DNA from: Verrucomicrobiota bacterium
GTDB taxonomy: Bacteria > Verrucomicrobiota > Verrucomicrobiia > Opitutales > Seribacteraceae
Direction: 5' to 3'
Assembly (NCBI GenBank): GCA_027622665.1
Contig: JAQBYT010000002.1
Span: forward strand, 32,001-96,000
Length of the DNA: 64,000 nt
Below, in pieces: positions 36,001 to 42,000 of this stretch; within the stretch, counting starts at the first letter, position 1, and each line of letters begins with the position of its first letter. Made by a program: the position numbers.

Positions 36001-39000
36001 CCAGAAATCCGACCGGCCCGCCGAGCTCCTCGACGTCTTTCCCACCTTGCTCGAATTAGCCGGACTACCCGCTGACTCCAGCCAGGAAGGGCAGAGCCTG
36101 GTGCCCCTCATGAAGAATCCCAAGAGGGAGTGGCCGCATCCCGCCATCACTAGTTTCGGACTGGGCAATTACTCGGTGCGCACTACCCGCTACCGCTTTA
36201 TCCAGTACTTTGACGGATCACGGGAACTCTATGACCTGAGCAAGGATCCGCACGAATGGAGGAACTTGGCCGCCGACCCGAAAAACAAATCGATCATCGA
36301 GGAACACGCGTCCCACCTGCCCAAGAAACAACACCCCGTCCTGCCGGGCAGGTCGACCGGGCATGCGGCCTACGGAGCGGCCAACGCCAACATCAAGAAC
36401 GATTGATCATTGGACGGAGCTCCCCTTACGCTTCCAAGGATGAACGGAACCCGAATCACAACCTTACCGGTTCTGACTGTTGCGGTGCTTCTTCTGTCAA
36501 GCTTGACGGTAAGCGCCGCTGTGCCCTCCGGCTTCGATCAAGTAATCAAGCCGTTCCTCAAAGAGAACTGCATCCGGTGTCACGGTGAGAAAAAGCAAAA
36601 GGGCAAGCTGGCTCTCCATCAGGTATCGTTTGATTTCACAACGACGGAGACTTCCGACTTGTGGCTTGAGATTCTTGAGCAATTGACGGCCCGAGACATG
36701 CCGCCGCCCGACGAGGAAGCGCAGCCGACTGATTCGGAACGTAATGCGGTGATCGAATGGATCGACCGTCAGTTGCTGACCGTGGGCTCGGGCGAAACTT
36801 ATCGCAAAAAGCTACTCGCCCCCGAATACGGCAACTGGGTAAATCACAAAAAGCTCTTTTCGGGTGAAATCAAAACACCCCCTTTTTCACCCTCTCGGCT
36901 CTGGCGGTTCAATACCGAGATTTTTGCCCACAAGGGCTTTGGCAAGGCGAAGAGCCCTTTCAGTTACGTGACCTCGGAACGTGGGATCCGCGACTACGCG
37001 GCTATGTCGGTTGCGGATCAGAGCACGGTGCAAATGACGATGATCGTGGCCGACTCGTTTCTAGCGGAGCGGGAAAAACGGGGCGATTTTACGGATTTCG
37101 GGGATGATAAGCCGGTTCCTGAGGAAAAGGCGCTTGTGGAGGTGATTAGGCGGGAGCATATTCGGGTGATCGGACGCTACCCGAACAAGGAAGAGCAGGA
37201 AAAATACCTGACCTTTCTCAAACAGAGCATCAAAGCTGGCGGGAACCTAGACGGATTCAAAACGACGATCAAAGCGATGTTCCTGAGTCCGGAATCGATC
37301 TACCGGATGGAATTCGGCCTAGGTGAGGTGGACGAGCACGGACGCCGGCATTTGTCACCGGACGAACTGGCCCATGCGATCGCCTATGCATTGACGGATT
37401 ACAGACCGGACAACCATCGACTCATTCGTGACGCACTGCAAAAGGGGAAGCTGAAAACCAAGGAGGACGTGGCTCGTCTCGTTCGGCAATTGATGGACGA
37501 ACAACTCTTGACGGGACACTGGGACCGGAAGGATCTGCCGCGAATCAGGCGGTTCTTTGAGGAGTTCTTCGGTTTTCATCGGGCCGGAACGGTCTTCAAG
37601 GACAACGACCGGCGGGGTGCGGAAAAGATTAACCAATGGAACACGACTATGCTCATTCACGACGCGCGGATGCTGATTGAGCACGTGTTGAAGAAGGACA
37701 AAGACGTTATCGCCGAGTTGTTGACCACAAATGAGTACTTCATCGCGCATCCGGGCGACAACGAGTATGCCCGCGAGCATTACGAGAAGAAAGTGGCGGA
37801 GATCATGGATCCGGGCTTTGTCCAGGCACGCATTGAGCTGCGCAGGAAACAGATCAAGGGGGATTTCAATTTTGAGAATATGCCGGAAAAGGCGGAGGAA
37901 GCGCTGGTTTCCGCCCGCCGGGATGCGGAGAAAACGGTTGCGATGTATCAAGCGACGCTGGACAAGGGAATGCACCGCCATCCCGATTTTCCTTTCGAGG
38001 GCAATAGGCGCGGCATTGCGGATCTCCTTTATGTCGAGCCCTACAATTTACCTAGCAACGGTCGCCACGGGGAACAAAAGTGGGACTGGCCCATCGAGCA
38101 ACCCTTGAAGATGCCCAAGGAGCAACGGGCCGGTTTACTTACGCATCCAGCGTGGTTGACAGCCTATTCGCTCAATGAGGACAATGATCCCATTCATCGG
38201 GGGATCTGGGTATACGAACGGTTACTGGCGGGGGTGCTGGGTGACGTCCCCCCGGACGTTGACGCGGCCGTGCCAACCGATCCTCACAAGACTCTTAGGG
38301 AGCGGATGGAGCCACTGCGAAGCGAACGGTGCTGGAAGTGCCACCGCAAGATGAATCCGCTCGGTGAAGCGTTCGAGGTCTTTGATGACTGGGGGCGCTA
38401 TCGAACCCATCACTACTTTGACGAGAACGGTGAAATCTACATGCGGCGGGACAACCAGTTCGACCGCAAGCTCAAGGAGGGCAAACTAACGACCCGCAAG
38501 GTAGACGCGTCCGGAGAAATTGCCTTTTCGGGCGATCCCAAGGTCGATGGAAAAGTAAAGGATGCAGTCGAAATGATGCAGCGCCTGGGTCGTTCGGATC
38601 GGGCCCGTCAGTCCTTCATCCGGCATTTGTTCCGCTATTTCATGGGACGCAACGAGATGCTGAGCGATTCAAGAACCTTGATCGAAGCCGAAAGAGCCTA
38701 TGTAGATAAAGGCGGTAGCTTTAAAGCGCTCGTTGTATCATTATTAAGTTCGGATTCCTTTTTATACAGACGATAATCATACCTATTTATGATATATAAA
38801 AGACGGCAGTTTCTGCGAAATTTCTCCCTTGGCGGCAGCACCCTTGCCATGGCTCCTTTTCTACAATCCATTCGGGTCCATGCCGCCGGAGACGAAGCTG
38901 CCTTGCCGAAGCGGTTCGTCTTCGTGGTGAAATCATCAGGAATCGACAAGTTCAACCTCGTACCCGAGGGTCTCGAAAATCACTTCGTCAATCCGGACGA

Positions 39001-42000
39001 CGGCAAGAAACTGGGGAATCGAGGGCGGCGGGAAGGACCTCTCGTAGACGTCGCGCTGGCAGATCACCAGCTTCCGGAAAAACTGGCCGCCTTGGAAACT
39101 TTCAAAGATCGCCTGACAGTCATTCAAAGTTTGTCCGGGGTGGGCTTCCGGGGAAACCATACCAAGGGATTCGGGACCCTTTCGCTTCATGATTCGGAAA
39201 AGGTAGCCGTTGCCCCGACGCTGGATTGTCTCCTCGGGCAACATCTCTCCACGGGTCCATTCCCGATGTACGGCATGGCAATGAGCGGTCAACTGCTTGA
39301 GTCCGCAGGATGGAAACCCGAAGACTCCTATTGCTATCCAAACCTTTCCGCCTACGCAGCCGCCAAGCCCGTTGCCTATCAAGGTTCCCCCCGGAAAGCC
39401 TTTCTCGAACTCTTCGGCGCCGGCGTGGCAAGCCCCCGGGAACTGGAAAAGAAAATCGCTCTGAACGGCGACCTGATGGATTTCCTGACCGAGGATGCCC
39501 GGCGCGTGGAGAAGCGACTGTCCGGGGACGACAAGGAACGGTTCGCTCTTTATATGGATTCGTTCGATTCGCTGCGAAAGATCGAAGAGAAGAAAGCCGC
39601 CCTTACGGACCGCATTCAAAAGCACGCCCCGGAACTGACGGACCGCTTCGATTCCACCGCTCCATCCGAGCGAATCGAATCGCACTTTGAAATCGCCTCC
39701 GCCGCTCTGGTCGCTGGCCTGACAAATGTGATCACCCTGCGTCCGGACACCTTGGGCGTGAAGTATTCCGAGCTCAAGATATCGAATTCCGTACACGCCC
39801 TTGGACACCTCCAGGACAACAAGGCTTCAAACGGCTGGACCGGTCACCAGGCGCGCATGGAGATCGAAAAGCTGCACCTCAAGCAAATCGCAAAAATGGC
39901 CAAGAAGTTCGACGATATTCCGGAAGGAAATGGCTCGATGCTCGACAACACGATGATCGTCTACATGTCGTGTTCTTCCGGCGACCATCATTGCGCCGGT
40001 CATGATTGGCCAGTCGTTCTGCTTGGCGGGATGGGGAAGAAGCTGAAGACTGGACGCTATGTCGAGTATCCCAAGTATGGCAGCAAAGGCCACCGTACGG
40101 TTGGCAACCTTTACCTTTCCTTGATGCAGGCCGCCGGAATGAAAACTTCCGAAACCTTCGGTCAACCGGATGCCAACCTGAAGGATCTCGACCTGAAGGG
40201 ACCGTTGCAGGAATTGATGGTAGGCTAGAAGAAACTGAGAGATAAAAAGAAGAACTGCATGATATCATGCATAACGGAATTCCACCTTTCACCATGCAGC
40301 CCTCGATAATCCATATAGTCGTCCTCCTTTTGATCGCGATTCGGGCTCTCGCCCATCCCGTTCCCGACAGTCCGAAGTGGCTGGTTTATCCCGGCGGTGA
40401 AGGTCCCGGCAAAGGCAAGCACGTCGTTCTCATCTCCGCCGATCAGGAATACCGTAGCGAACAATCCATGCCGATGATGGCGAAAATCCTGAGCAGGCAT
40501 CATGGCTTTGACTGTACCGTACTGTTTGGGGTCAACGAAGAGGGCGAAGTCGACCCGACCATGCCGGTCTACCCGAAAAAGGGGAAGGAGGACGAATTCA
40601 AGTCACACGATATTCCCGGCCTTGAGCATCTCGCATCAGCCGACCTCGTAATCTTTTTTACCCGCCTGCTGACCCTCCCGATCGCCCAACAGGAACAGAT
40701 CGTCTCCTACCTCGATTCCGGCAAACCAATGATTGCGCTTCGGACTGCGAATCATGGATTCCGCGGACCTATTCCCTACGAGATTGATGGTAAAAGGGTG
40801 AACTTCGGAAACGACGTACTGGGAGGGTCCTTCAGGGGGCATCACGGTCGTTGGCATGCCGATTCAACCAGAGGCGCCGTTGTCGAAGAACAAAAGAATC
40901 ATCCCATCGTATCCGGGGTCAAAGATATCTGGGGACCGTCGGACGTTTACCGGACATACAAGGAAGGAACCAGTCTTCCGGAAGGTTGCACCGCCTTGGT
41001 CTGGGGGCAGCCGTTGATGGGACGCAAACCCGACGATCTTCCGAATCAAAAAAAGGAACCGCTCCCGGTCGCCTGGTTCAAGACCTGGAAGACCAGCAAA
41101 GGCAAAAGCGCTCGCGTGTTCCATTCGACCATGGGCAGCGCCAAGGACTTGGAAAGCGATGGTCTGCGCCGCCTCGTCATCAATGCCACCTATTGGGGCT
41201 TGGGCTTGGAATCCGCCATTTCCCCGACCAGAAAAGTCGACTACGTGGGCCCCTACAAACCTCTCGCGAGTGGATTCAATTATGAAAAGCTCGGGGTCGT
41301 GCCAAAGTTTCCCGAAGCTTACAAATAGCAAACCCGTAATTTAACCTCATGAGTACGAATATTCATCCCCATAGCCTCCACCTGAAGCTCAACTCCTTAG
41401 TCGCTTTTGCCTCTTTTTTCGTAGTTGCCACCGTTGCCTCCGGGCAGAAGAAGGACATGCCGAGGGAGAATGTCATCGAGATCCCGGCAATTGGCGAGGG
41501 ACTCTGCTTCCATAACCTTTTCCAGTCCAACATGGTGCTGCAACGGGACAAGCCGATTCAAATCTGGGGATGGGCAAGTCCGGAAGAAAAGGTAAGCGTC
41601 TCCTTTGCCGATCAAACCCAAAGAGCAGAGGCAAACAAGGATCGCTTATGGAAGATCACTTTGCCCGCTATGTCGGCCAATGCAGAACCGCAAACACTTA
41701 CCGTCAAAGGTAAGGCCAAGCTGCGGCATGCACCAAGCCACATCATCGACCTCGCTCCCACCTGTCTCTCGGCAGCCGGTCTTTCGGTCAAGGGAATGGA
41801 AGGCAAGAGCCTCTTGCCCGTCTTTCCCAAGGATTCCATGTGGCAACGTACTCTTTACTGGGAGCACGAGGGCAACCGGGCGGTCCGCAAGGGAAACCAT
41901 AAGCTGGTCGCCATTCACTATACCCCGTGGAAATTGTACGATCTGAGCAAGGATCGCAGTGAATTGAACGACCTTTCCGAAACCATGCCTAAGAAAACCG

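Follow-up and report, generated by a model that had tools for sequence, protein, structure and literature searches.

The window that we analyzed, a stretch of 64,000 nucleotides from a Verrucomicrobiota bacterium, carries a pair of neighboring ORFs whose coordinates are given here in window numbering; all window features described below lie on the + strand. The first ORF (P0001, 36440..38776, with an alternative TTG start at 36410) was translated from its ATG and yields an exported protein of 778 amino acids, with the Pfam domain order PSCyt1-PSD5-PSD4-PSCyt3-PSD2. The second ORF (P0002, 38789..40228) follows after 12 bp and codes for a Tat-exported DUF1552 protein of 479 amino acids, predicted from AF2 modelling and fold searches to belong to the alkaline-phosphatase superfamily. 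Analysis of the ORFs and their translations confirmed the layout described in the first-pass annotation, that is the lengths of both proteins, their spacing, the two CxxCH motifs of P0001 (residues 44-48 and 631-635) and the twin-arginine motif of P0002. Orthologues in Verrucomicrobiota and Planctomycetota records are 67-93% identical, which agrees with the earlier range of 65-93% for the same two phyla. According to Pfam the pair is preceded by a sulfatase (30783-32423), a GDSL esterase (32438-33379) and two further sulfatases (33468-34958 and 34955-36406), together covering 30783..36406. It is followed by a ThuA-like gene (40267-41328), a C-terminal remnant of a sulfatase (41349-42101) and an FG-GAP repeat protein (42166-43431), covering 40267..43431.

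P0001 begins with a Sec-type signal peptide (residues 1-26, 36440..36517; cleavage at …TVSA/AV), which was read by eye from the sequence. Next comes a domain assigned to the class-I cytochromes c by conservation, VIA and PDB profiles (residues 31-121, 36530..36802; PSCyt1 match at 44-91). It contains C44-x-x-C47-H48 (36569-36583) and M87-P88-P89, and all six of these residues (C44, C47, H48, M87, P88 and P89) are invariant in 38/38 sequences of the P0001 family, paralogues and orthologues included. VIA aligned this domain with the YhjA haem domain 9qdt (Z 9.1, rmsd 2.0, 83 aligned), and the PDB profiles that it matched were class-I cytochromes c, all at sub-threshold scores. The region at residues 246-435 (37175..37744) is helical and comprises PSD4 (305-435) together with a PSD5 match (246-291) that reaches 29.9 bits, under its cut-off of 34.2. 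The second haem motif, C631-W-K-C634-H635 (38330-38344), is part of PSCyt3 (residues 563-657, 38126..38410, Pfam E 1.8e-26). C631, C634, H635 and R587 are invariant in this domain across the 38 sequences, as is D743 further downstream; R563, R655 and R737 are nearly so. Apart from H635 no His or Met within residues 550-778 is at least 90% conserved in the 38 sequences, and no conserved sixth haem ligand was found around PSCyt3. The protein ends with PSD2 (residues 705-774, 38552..38761). Comparing DUF1800 with the PSCyt3 family by hhalign gave a match on residues 708-774 (probability 63%, E 7e-5, 64 columns), and PSD2 may be a relative of part of DUF1800. The AF2 model of P0001 (pLDDT 79) is largely helical, and beyond the N-terminal domain it resembled no clear known fold (no Foldseek match at E<=1e-3; VIA Z<=5.8). 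All 40 large paralogues of P0001 in the genome contain exactly two CxxCH motifs, and genes of the CcsA type for haem attachment are present.

P0002 carries a twin-arginine signal peptide at residues 1-32 (38789..38884; K-R5-R6-Q-F-L-R … V-H-A/A), recognized by its KRRQFLR motif at residues 4-10, with the cleavage site placed by eye. Among the DUF1552 paralogues R5 is found in 36/36 and R6 in 35/36, and the genome has one TatC gene. The HXXSHH/DUF1552 match covers residues 42-367 (Pfam, E 4.7e-34). An alkaline-phosphatase/sulfatase fold had been proposed for DUF1552 from a model with a pLDDT of 66. Our model (pLDDT 92.4, pTM 0.91) confirms this predicted fold on stronger grounds: all 50 VIA matches listed belong to the alkaline-phosphatase superfamily (Z 11.5-15.9; best named match PafA with Z 15.9, rmsd 3.8 and 269 aligned), and so does every one of the now 11 Foldseek matches at E<=1e-3. 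In the literature that we could search we found no statement on the fold of DUF1552. By profile comparison DUF1552 and DUF1501 are homologues (hhalign 98.7%, E 2.4e-16, 387 columns), and DUF1501 in turn aligned with the sulfatase profile (97.6%, E 1.8e-11, 369 columns).

We then considered which residues might form an active site. His124 (codon 39158..39160) is kept in 83/83 DUF1552 family sequences and in all 36 paralogues of the genome. The N-terminal half of DUF1552 failed to align in direct global alignments with the sulfatases. The placement of H124 runs through DUF1501: it aligns with a DUF1501 His, which aligns with the sulfatase Cys at a posterior of about 0.6-0.7, and for the placement as a whole the posterior is about 0.6-0.8. 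His124 probably sits at the position of the formylglycine nucleophile. Family conservation and paralogue alignment further mark H336-A-L-G-H340 (39794..39808), the form of the HxxSHH motif in this subfamily, with H336 in 81/83 and H340 in 82/83 family sequences. At 39944..39991 lies D386-N-T-…-S-C395-S-S-G-D-H400-H401, a sulfatase-like strand motif whose counterpart in S1 sulfatases, in the alignment with the family profile, is 'DNTLIVFMSDNG'; H400 is present in 81/83 and H401 in 82/83 sequences, as is D146 in 81/83. Position 395, usually Asp, is Cys in P0002 and in 12/12 orthologues (D49/C14/E8 of 83 family members). In the AF2 model H124, D146, H336, H340, H400 and H401 are at C-terminal ends of strands or N-termini of helices, and judging from the secondary structure of the model the histidines would cluster around one centre. 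The differences to sulfatases are clear: where these have 'DD' after strand 1, P0002 has K48-S49 and both aspartates are missing, and the formylglycine motif C/S-x-P-x-R, found in 48/73 sulfatases of the genome, is absent from P0002 and occurs in 0/36 paralogues. The K48-S49-S50 that had been described as invariant is so in close orthologues (12/12) but varies across the 83 family members (K30/E23 at position 48, S36/G36 at 49, N55/S24 at 50). Together this speaks against a mechanism of the sulfatase type or one with a Ser nucleophile. In the searchable literature there was no report of a metal, haem or activity measured for any member of the module.

Counting six-frame profile matches with fragments included, the genome contains 40 matches to DUF1552 (39 above the cut-off), 74 to DUF1501 (72), 44 to PSCyt3 (43), 48 to PSCyt2 (46) and 132 to Sulfatase (126), which reproduces the previous counts of 40 DUF1552, 73 DUF1501 and 120 sulfatase genes. 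In 31 of the 40 DUF1552 matches a PSCyt3 domain of the same strand precedes at a distance of 404-549 bp, and 6 or 7 more have a PSCyt3 match 2.2-2.9 kb downstream; the gene order is reversed for 6 full-length DUF1552 ORFs. At the level of ORFs, a PSCyt3-family ORF on the same strand is no more than 300 bp away for 33/36 full-length DUF1552 ORFs, and 45/74 DUF1501-family ORFs adjoin a PSCyt2/PSD1 ORF in the same way, in line with the adjacency noted before (37/40 and 46/73). The pairing is specific for the type, PSCyt3 with DUF1552 and PSCyt2 with DUF1501, and amounts to about 80 modules in one genome. Two more modules are located in the window itself at 11082..18528 (Pfam and genome matches): DUF1552 (11082-12410), PSCyt3-family (12316-14859), DUF1552 (14956-16524) and PSCyt3-family (16528-18528). 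The distance matrices of DUF1552 and the PSCyt3 family correlate with a Mantel r of 0.86, a value reached in 0/2000 permutations. Of 41 orthologous loci in other genomes, 34 have the partner directly upstream; of the remaining 7, the contig breaks off within the locus in 6. These data support that DUF1552 and its cytochrome-type partner are a fixed two-gene unit whose families diverged together. The pairing as such had been published before (2012, 2017).

Our tentative reading, to which we give somewhat less than an even chance, is that P0001 and P0002 are subunits of one periplasmic redox-assisted enzyme and represent a widespread module. An enzyme without redox chemistry is possible, though in our judgment less probable. 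P0002 would then be a hydrolase or group-transferase in which His124 either acts as a covalent nucleophile (phospho- or sulfo-histidine) or helps to coordinate a binuclear metal site for hydrolysis, the PSD/DUF1800-like part would be a substrate-binding or lid subunit, and the haems would be a lineage-specific add-on with a structural or regulatory role. A sulfohistidine intermediate is known from bacterial arylsulfate sulfotransferase, and to our knowledge all characterized members of the alkaline-phosphatase superfamily are hydrolases, mutases or transferases. This explanation draws on DUF1800, a probable relative of PSD1 (hhalign 88%, E 2.9e-6, 172 columns) with a weak link to PSD2. DUF1800 was present in 31/120 genomes of a phylum sample vs 5/120 for DUF1552. 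All 30 DUF1800 loci have a DUF1501-like gene, and 0/28 DUF1800 partner proteins contain a CxxCH motif. The DUF1501 proteins of these pairs retain H164, D347, H349, R393 and H404 in 30/30, D403 in 29/30 and E390 in 25/30. Since the putative active site is thus conserved in pairs that lack haem, haem is not intrinsic to the chemistry of the superfamily, and redox coupling is weakened in its obligatory form. On the other hand, dispensable haems are hard to square with two CxxCH motifs and a Met ligand that are invariant across diverged paralogues and orthologues, and with exactly two such motifs in 40/40 paralogues. Universal Tat export would also be unusual, as Zn or Ca hydrolases of the alkaline-phosphatase fold are usually exported by Sec.

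It is unlikely that the haem protein itself is the catalyst, with an open-site haem in PSCyt3 (peroxidase- or oxygenase-like) fed with electrons by the N-terminal cytochrome and with DUF1552 as a substrate-binding or pseudo-enzyme subunit. H635 as the one highly conserved His or Met around PSCyt3, the invariant R587 and D743, and the lack of canonical strand-1 metal ligands and nucleophile motif in DUF1552 would fit this arrangement. However, the conserved arginines may merely bind haem propionates, and the sixth ligand could come from the partner or be a less conserved residue such as H569 (H24/Q8/M3 of 38). DUF1552 moreover keeps five invariant or nearly invariant His and an Asp at the canonical edge of the active site, and its Tat export suggests a cofactor of its own.

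Whether the two proteins form a complex was assessed by modelling residues 246-778 of P0001 with residues 40-479 of P0002. The ipSAE was 0.43 (runs 0.43, 0.46 and 0.39) against 0.00 for the best of three controls; agreement between the runs is 78% of contacts or more, with a partner pLDDT of 85 or higher. In the calibration of this score 116/157 solved complexes and 2/215 mismatched pairs reach the mark, of which only 18 of the solved complexes but both mismatches lie at 0.60 or under, counts that hold only roughly because we used our own alignments. The model gives weak support to a physical complex, to which the strong co-divergence of the two families adds. We consider it quite improbable that the proteins do not bind and are co-regulated neighbors of the same regulon, one of them for example carrying electrons in the periplasm and the other being an enzyme with no connection to it. 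The weak band of the score would agree with this, as would the fact that no fused cytochrome-DUF1552 protein was found (weak evidence), but it is opposed by type-specific pairing and co-divergence, and by a pair that stays joined across two phyla while its flanks change.

A role in the use of sulfated algal glycans had been suggested from the surrounding genes. In this genome a sulfatase is located within 5 kb of 22/42 DUF1552 ORFs, in comparison to 379/1946 background ORFs. The GDSL gene and the last upstream sulfatase are syntenic in three close relatives (L006, L022 and L023), and the GDSL gene alone in L028. A scan of the flanks in 11 other genomes showed a sulfatase beside the pair in only 2; GH5 (3 loci), other PSCyt pairs, amylase or unrelated genes were found instead. 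Sulfatase surroundings are thus enriched in this genome yet not conserved at orthologous loci, which weakens the role as a general one. It is very improbable that DUF1552 is, as had been proposed, a sulfatase-like metallo-hydrolase that uses a Ser nucleophile (K48-S49-S50-G51), depends on the cytochrome for maturation or re-oxidation and is dedicated to stripping such glycans. This proposal has the fold, the C-terminal sulfatase-like motif, the three upstream sulfatases and this enrichment in its favor, but the variable positions 48-50, the missing motif and Asp pair and the inconstant surroundings against it.

If P0001 and P0002 do act as one redox-assisted enzyme, P0002 would fold in the cytoplasm, where it is probably loaded with metal, before its export by Tat. 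Its centre would be non-canonical, with His124 in the place of formylglycine ringed by D146, H336, H340, H400 and H401. P0001 would leave by Sec and gain two covalent haems, haem 1 as a His/Met class-I cytochrome c at the N-terminus and haem 2 in PSCyt3, the latter lacking a conserved sixth ligand. The PSD/PSCyt3 part would dock onto P0002, and the haems would most likely move electrons between the metal centre of P0002 and the electron pool of the periplasm or of respiration. The pair may in this way carry out a redox-assisted conversion of substrates derived from glycans, and in this genome these substrates would often be sulfated.

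On the plus strand, P0001 (36410/36440–38776; 778 aa counted from the ATG), a cytochrome-type protein, is followed on the same strand after a gap of 12 bp by the DUF1552 protein P0002 (38789–40228; 479 aa). The Pfam domains of P0001, PSCyt1 (residues 44–91), PSD5 (246–291), PSD4 (305–435), PSCyt3 (563–657) and PSD2 (705–774), stand in an order that fits the PSCyt3/PSD ‘planctomycete cytochrome’ set (PF07635, PF07637, PF07631, PF07627, PF07624); PSD5 matches with 29.9 bits, below its cut-off of 34.2, and the other four lie above theirs. The N-terminus of P0001 is a Sec-type signal, and CxxCH motifs are located at 44–48 and 631–635. 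In P0002, HXXSHH/DUF1552 (PF07586) covers residues 42–367 (E 4.7e-34, 118.8 bits vs a cut-off of 30), preceded by a twin-arginine signal, K-R-R-Q-F-L-R at residues 4–10, with R5 present in 36/36 and R6 in 35/36 paralogues. NCBIfam holds no model for either protein.

We counted the families by six-frame searches, fragments included, in the 4.52-Mb assembly (66 contigs; the window corresponds to G000:C65:32001-96000). DUF1552 gave 40 matches (39 above cut-off), DUF1501 74 (72), PSCyt3 44 (43), PSCyt2 48 (46) and Sulfatase 132 (126). For 31 of the 40 DUF1552 matches a PSCyt3 domain is located 404–549 bp upstream on the same strand. According to our own ORF calls, 33 of the 36 full-length DUF1552 ORFs have a same-strand PSCyt3-family ORF within 300 bp, the cytochrome coming first in 27 pairs and second in 6, and a PSCyt2/PSD1 ORF adjoins 45 of the 74 DUF1501-family ORFs. 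The DUF1552, DUF1501, sulfatase and adjacency numbers of the first-pass annotation agree with this recount. Across the 33 pairs, the DUF1552 and PSCyt3-family distance matrices are correlated with a Mantel r of 0.86, a value equalled in 0 of 2000 permutations. P0002 and P0001 have exactly eight close paralogues each, set off from the remainder by a wide gap in E-value. The association is real and far beyond chance, and the pair adds one more member to a published module of unsolved function, which is exceptionally expanded in this genome.

The PSCyt/PSD-type domains were reportedly defined by Studholme in 2004. That work is cited in the available portions of both Kamneva et al. 2012 (PMC3542564) and He et al. 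2017 (mSphere, PMC5615132). The latter, as far as its accessible text goes, describes PSCyt3/PSD and DUF1552 pairs of Verrucomicrobia and Planctomycetes, to which P0001–P0002 belongs: their ‘Group III’ combines PSCyt3 with PSD4, PSD2, PSD5 and PSCyt1 and has an adjoining DUF1552 gene. Particular to the subfamily studied here are the absence of PSD3 (found in 14/38 relatives), H-x-x-G-H in place of HxxSHH, and Cys395. In PVC bacteria, the available part of Kamneva et al. 2012 describes DUF1501 together with PSCyt1/PSCyt2/PSD1 as a ‘conserved genetic module’, notes its Tat and signal peptides and proposes electron transport. Our pair resembles that module in its Tat-exported homologous partner (98.7% in the profile comparison), in the same two-gene logic and in the N-terminal region shared by the PSCyt3 and PSCyt2 families (hhalign 98.2%, 188 columns). 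It differs in the C-terminal set of the cytochrome, PSD4/PSCyt3/PSD2 here vs PSCyt2/PSD1 there, and in the conserved enzyme residues, which are D-x-H, EFGR and D-H in DUF1501 vs H-x-x-x-H and HH in DUF1552. The pairing is therefore already published; what is added here is a firm fold for DUF1552 and its homology to DUF1501. Full-text literature searches returned no functional or structural study of the module families and no statement of the DUF1552 fold.

Public genomes contain 54 loci encoding relatives. Orthologues are 67–93% identical in marine Verrucomicrobiales, Opitutia and Akkermansiaceae records and 75–83% identical in Pirellulaceae records. Considering loci whose P0002 orthologue reaches at least 60% identity, a P0001 orthologue lies directly upstream in 34 of 41; of the remaining seven loci, six contain too short a stretch of upstream DNA and one (L020) has the upstream gene in pieces. 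Flanking genes are kept only in the closest relatives, with GDSL and sulfatase genes in L006, L022 and L023 and the GDSL gene alone in L028. In 11 other loci the flanks vary and include GH5 (L029, L033, L043), other PSCyt2/DUF1501 or DUF1552 modules, an amylase and unrelated genes. The conserved unit is the two-gene pair itself. At L020, a Verrucomicrobiales record, three short ORFs (7861–9984) replace the gene upstream of the P0002 orthologue, possibly a broken partner gene or an assembly error. We also compared the Pirellulaceae (Planctomycetota) loci L005, L010, L011, L013, L015–L018, L029, L032–L038, L040 and L043 with L001–L004, L006–L009 and others: P0002 orthologues are 75–83% identical in the former, 83–93% in most Verrucomicrobiota and 67% in the Akkermansiaceae locus L019. 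Two of the Pirellulaceae contigs are 241 and 369 kb long. Because identity across phyla is so high, the comparison suggests that the two-gene unit may have been transferred recently between them.

The pair stands in a plus-strand row of genes recognised with Pfam as sulfatase, GDSL esterase, sulfatase, sulfatase, P0001, P0002, ThuA-like, sulfatase C-terminal remnant and FG-GAP protein. Two further modules, each a DUF1552 gene followed by a PSCyt3-family gene, lie at 11082–18528. Within the row, the 250-aa ORF at 41349–42101 matches only the C-terminal part of sulfatases (SGSH_C) and is a sulfatase remnant or a stand-alone C-terminal domain. Elsewhere in the window an ISL3-family transposase gene (24360–25751) abuts an ORF (25573–26733) that matches only positions 211–300, the last third, of the sulfatase profile; this looks like a sulfatase gene interrupted by an insertion. 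Two divergent 3-keto-disaccharide-hydrolase (DUF1080) genes adjoin a GntR/LacI-type regulator at 47493–50342, a row of MoxR AAA ATPase, DUF58, VWA protein and BatA-type genes at 53122–58414 resembles an ‘aerotolerance’ operon, and a lone HEPN gene of the AbiU2 family (abortive-infection type) is located on the minus strand at 2844–3497, close to the window start.

A promoter/terminator scan remained at chance level (6 vs 7.6 and 25 vs 20.5). Short contigs from four seawater metatranscriptome runs (X15–X18) cover both genes of the pair with 95–100% identity, and one of them (40136–40442) crosses the DUF1552/ThuA junction. None spans the P0001/P0002 junction with 31 letters on each side; the contig 38771–38997 has 6 on the left. 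Since such libraries can contain DNA, these contigs prove neither transcription nor co-transcription of the pair.

For structural analysis of P0002 we assembled an alignment of 83 sequences from close orthologues and 50%-cluster representatives. The AF2 model calculated on it has a mean pLDDT of 92.4 and a pTM of 0.91, in comparison to a pLDDT of 66 for the model of the first-pass annotation. When aligned with VIA-align against 48,161 chains, all 50 matches listed are members of the alkaline-phosphatase superfamily (Z 11.5–15.9): PafA (5too) comes first with Z 15.9, rmsd 3.8 and 269 aligned residues, the chondroitin sulfatase 8di0 reaches Z 15.2, rmsd 4.2 and 269 aligned, and below them, down to Z 11.5, come NPPs, EptA/MCR-1, LtaS, alkaline phosphatases and phosphopentomutase. 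Foldseek returned 11 matches at E<=1e-3, every one from the same superfamily. The alkaline-phosphatase/sulfatase fold previously proposed for DUF1552 is upheld by these results.

Profile comparisons place the family in the same surroundings. Using alignments of this genome’s own paralogues, DUF1552 matches DUF1501 over 387 columns (98.7%, E 2.4e-16), and DUF1501 matches sulfatases both locally (95.7%, E 9.7e-9, 102 columns) and globally (97.6%, E 1.8e-11, 369 columns). DUF1501 is already part of the Pfam alkaline-phosphatase clan, and three sub-threshold Sulfatase HMM matches in the genome fall within DUF1501 ORFs. Between DUF1552 and sulfatases a match was found in the C-terminal part (86.8%, E 4.3e-6, 75 columns); direct global alignment with hhalign failed (prob 0.05), and a merged DUF1552+DUF1501 profile aligned confidently with sulfatases in the C-terminal part only. 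The six best matches of the 83-sequence profile in the PDB are all S1 sulfatases at sub-threshold E-values of 0.2–1, and they align the family stretch ‘DnTlivylsDnGekHH’ with sulfatase ‘DNTLIVFMSDNG’. A phmmer search of P0002 against PDB sequences gave no meaningful match, the ESM Atlas returned DUF1552 clusters only, and a search for longer, fused cytochrome–DUF1552 proteins found none, which is weak evidence. The Pfam HXXSHH model stops at residue 367 and omits the C-terminal 110 residues with the sulfatase-like ‘DNT…SDxG…HH’ motif, which may be the reason why the superfamily link is easily overlooked.

The mechanism is a different matter. P0002 had been annotated as a sulfatase-like hydrolase with its nucleophile in the region K48-S49-S50-G51, and neither proposal is supported. 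K48, S49 and S50 are invariant in 12 close orthologues only, and across the 83 sequences these positions vary (K30/E23, S36/G36 and N55/S24). Strand 1 ends in V-K48-S49-S50-G51 in P0002 vs A-D-D-x-G in sulfatases, and the Asp-Asp that provides metal ligands in S1 sulfatases does not follow strand 1. P0002 is not matched by the Sulfatase HMM (PF00884) even at E<=10. C/S-x-P-x-R is absent from it, and the full signature occurs in 0/36 DUF1552, 0/61 DUF1501 and 48/73 sulfatase sequences of the genome. Compared with the S1 formylglycine sulfatases, P0002 shares the fold, and its family consensus aligns with the C-terminal ‘DNT…SD(N/H)G’ strand motif; it differs in the residues just named, in a long helical insertion (201–309), in Tat export and in having a histidine where the formylglycine would be expected.

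This histidine is H124, which together with D386 is invariant in all 83 sequences. At least 90% conserved are R42, G51, D146, H336, H340, T388, H400, H401 and P408, and the same residue set is conserved in 36 paralogues of this genome. When DUF1501 is globally aligned with sulfatases, its invariant His is placed opposite the formylglycine Cys (‘…H..a.....TG’ over ‘…C.PSRasllTG’, posterior ~0.6–0.8), and H124 of DUF1552 aligns with that His (posterior ~0.7–0.8). The equivalence rests on these two steps via DUF1501 because direct DUF1552–sulfatase alignments failed in the N-terminal part. In the model H124 lies between strand 109–113 and helix 129–132, the usual place of the nucleophile in the superfamily. 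We infer from the alignments that the nucleophile position would be occupied by His124 and not by Ser or Thr. D386-N-T is probably structural, since sulfatases have a corresponding ‘DNT’ ahead of their metal-binding strand. When the family consensus ‘DnTlivylsDnG’ is set against sulfatase ‘DNTLIVFMSDNG’ (E 0.2), the metal-binding Asp of ‘SDNG’ corresponds to position 395. Among the 83 sequences, 49 have D at this position, 14 have C and 8 have E; P0002 and 12/12 orthologues have Cys. The HxxSHH counterpart in P0002 reads H336-A-L-G-H340-L, also in its 8 close paralogues: the first and fifth residues are kept as His, Ser is replaced by Gly and the sixth-position His is absent. H336-x-x-x-H340 presumably recalls the D-x-x-x-H metal motif of alkaline phosphatases, NPPs and PafA. 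Unlike these bimetallo enzymes, among which PafA is the best structural match, P0002 has no Ser/Thr nucleophile and no strand-1 Asp, and its ligand set is not demonstrably equivalent. Our reading is a predicted His-rich metal centre made up of H124, D146, H336, H340, H400 and H401, with C395 as an additional ligand, where the clustering of these residues is itself a prediction. No characterised superfamily member is known to have a centre of this kind.

For P0001 we aligned 38 sequences, including 15 orthologues and 22 paralogues. Invariant are C44, C47, H48, M87, P88, P89, G565, R587, P604, C631, C634, H635, G642, G652, D743 and S771. Both CxxCH motifs are conserved in 38/38 sequences, and exactly two such motifs were found in 40/40 large paralogues examined. 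The AF2 model of P0001 has a pLDDT of 79 and a pTM of 0.77. Its residues 31–121 match the haem domain of YhjA, a cytochrome c peroxidase (VIA-align Z 9.1, rmsd 2.0, 83 aligned), the N-terminal domain has a Cytochrome_CBB3 Pfam match below cut-off (E 4.9e-5), and the sub-threshold profile matches in the PDB are class-I cytochromes c. Because CxxCH and M87 are invariant and the YhjA and class-I matches coincide, the first predicted haem site is of the His/Met class-I cytochrome c type. For the second, no conserved sixth ligand was found within residues 550–778 of the alignment. The genome carries CcsA-type haem-attachment genes, TatC and 19 FGE-domain matches; from the CxxCH motifs and the CcsA-type genes two haem-attachment sites are predicted in P0001. 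Outside residues 31–121 the whole-protein model is helical and without a clear known fold, VIA-align having matched the N-terminal haem domain only; Foldseek gave 0 matches at E<=1e-3. Phycobilisome-linker-like matches at 193–289 (Z 5.8) were discarded as too weak.

Co-folding of P0001 (246–778) with P0002 (40–479) resulted in an ipSAE of 0.43 (runs 0.43, 0.46 and 0.39), the best of 3 controls reaching 0.00, and was classed as ‘weak support’. Contacts agreed to at least 78% between runs, with a partner pLDDT of at least 85. The mark is reached by 116/157 solved complexes and 2/215 mismatched pairs, and at an ipSAE of 0.60 or under by 18/157 solved complexes and both passing mismatches; as the co-fold was run on alignments that we built ourselves, these calibration counts are valid only roughly. 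Pairing and co-divergence provide a strong prior, and we take the putative P0001–P0002 complex as likely. In its organisation only, it is comparable to two-subunit periplasmic oxidoreductases such as the sulfite dehydrogenase SorAB, where adjacent genes encode a catalytic subunit exported by Tat and a cytochrome c exported by Sec; the fold and cofactor of the catalytic subunit are unrelated.

Whether the haems take part in the reaction can be viewed in the light of a related pair. The text available of Gonçalves et al. 2016 (PMC5122149) describes operons of DUF1501 with DUF1800 in Proteobacteria and others. In a 120-genome phylum sample DUF1800 is present in 31 genomes and DUF1552 in 5, and a DUF1501-like ORF accompanied DUF1800 in 30/30 loci fetched. 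In this pair too, a helical partner stands beside a Tat-exported subunit of alkaline-phosphatase fold whose nucleophile position is occupied by the same His. Unlike P0001, the partner has no cytochrome domain and no CxxCH (0/28 proteins). For its C-terminal half a relationship to PSD1 is probable (88%, E 2.9e-6, 172 columns) and one to PSD2 of P0001, judging from the profile match, is weak (63%, E 7e-5). In the studied genome a haem-free DUF1800 gene is directly followed by a divergent DUF1501-like gene (C10:44330-46584, L085); the same organism thus has the module in a haem-free as well as a haem-bearing form. The 30 DUF1800-paired DUF1501 proteins keep the Tat motif, the nucleophile-position His (30/30), D-x-H (30/30), E-F-G-R (25–30/30) and D-H (29–30/30). 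At the level of sequence the core of the catalytic subunit is thus unchanged beside a haem-free partner, of which the conserved part is the helical PSD/DUF1800 module, and haem is therefore not intrinsic to the chemistry of the superfamily. A separate observation concerns D87, K89, R329, R330 and E333 of DUF1501 (reference C48:17803-19254), which are at least 95% conserved in this genome’s 61 sequences (43 of 62 full-length DUF1501 ORFs adjoin a PSCyt2/PSD1 gene) and not conserved in the 30 DUF1800-paired proteins. These residues may contact the cytochrome-type partner.

These haem-free pairs call for caution with regard to a redox function. Tentatively, we regard P0001 and P0002 as a two-subunit periplasmic metalloenzyme in which the haems would carry electrons, a possibility to be taken seriously while still short of probable. 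The main rival, a non-redox enzyme with the partner serving as a binding or lid subunit, would fit the intact DUF1501 core next to a haem-free DUF1800 partner, but in every PSCyt-type partner both haem motifs are strictly retained, which counts against the haems being dispensable there; we consider it rather unlikely.

With respect to the substrate, sulfatase genes are located within 5 kb of 22/42 DUF1552-family and 22/74 DUF1501-family ORFs, in comparison to a background of 379/1946 ORFs of at least 300 aa. Sulfatase genes are described as frequent near such pairs in the accessible text of He et al. 2017 (PMC5615132) as well. The enrichment near DUF1552 is real in this genome, yet it is not kept at orthologous loci, where a sulfatase adjoins the pair in only 2 of the 11 loci with variable flanks (L003, L019). 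Of the 19 FGE-domain matches, 5 are found no more than 3 kb from a module, with 1.5 expected; 22 of 2000 random placements gave at least 5. FGE-sulfatase-domain genes stand beside DUF1552/PSCyt3 modules at C19:57-3573, C65:103741-104463, C65:200034-200570 and C44:154-792, and two of the FGE-adjacent modules belong to P0002’s own subfamily. FGE as a maturation partner of P0002 was set aside since the FGE target motif is absent from P0002.

Overall, the first-pass annotation, which saw in the pair a sulfatase-like hydrolase with a dedicated cytochrome acting on sulfated algal glycans, stands with regard to the fold and is not supported with regard to mechanism and nucleophile, and its redox and sulfated-glycan parts are somewhat weakened. 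In the most far-reaching reading, DUF1552 and DUF1501 would be the first redox enzymes on an alkaline-phosphatase scaffold, with an invariant His replacing Ser, Thr or formylglycine within a five-His/Asp centre. The centre would receive a redox-active metal (Fe, Mn or Cu) while still in the cytoplasm, which would account for export through Tat; in P0002, Cys395 would serve as an extra ligand. The dedicated di-haem subunit would link the centre with the electron pool. We think it improbable that all of this is correct. If it were, the ~110 modules of this genome would form an oxidative system, dependent on O2 or peroxide, by which recalcitrant and often sulfated glycans are cleaved or stripped of their decorations. 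It would also explain the small number of glycoside hydrolases in pair-rich PVC bacteria, an inverse relation between PSCyt-type pairs and glycoside hydrolases being noted in the available text of He et al. 2017 (PMC5615132).

Candidates for mutagenesis are H124, D146, H336, H340, C395, H400 and H401 in P0002 and C631, C634, H635 and R587 in P0001. In marine and freshwater Planctomycetes and Verrucomicrobia, the pairs count among the most expanded unexplained gene families, and this 4.5-Mb genome alone contains ~110 enzyme-type genes of the module. If they constitute a separate, possibly redox-assisted route of glycan processing, carbon-cycle models that rely on numbers of glycoside hydrolases and sulfatases would overlook much of the degradative capacity of these bacteria.
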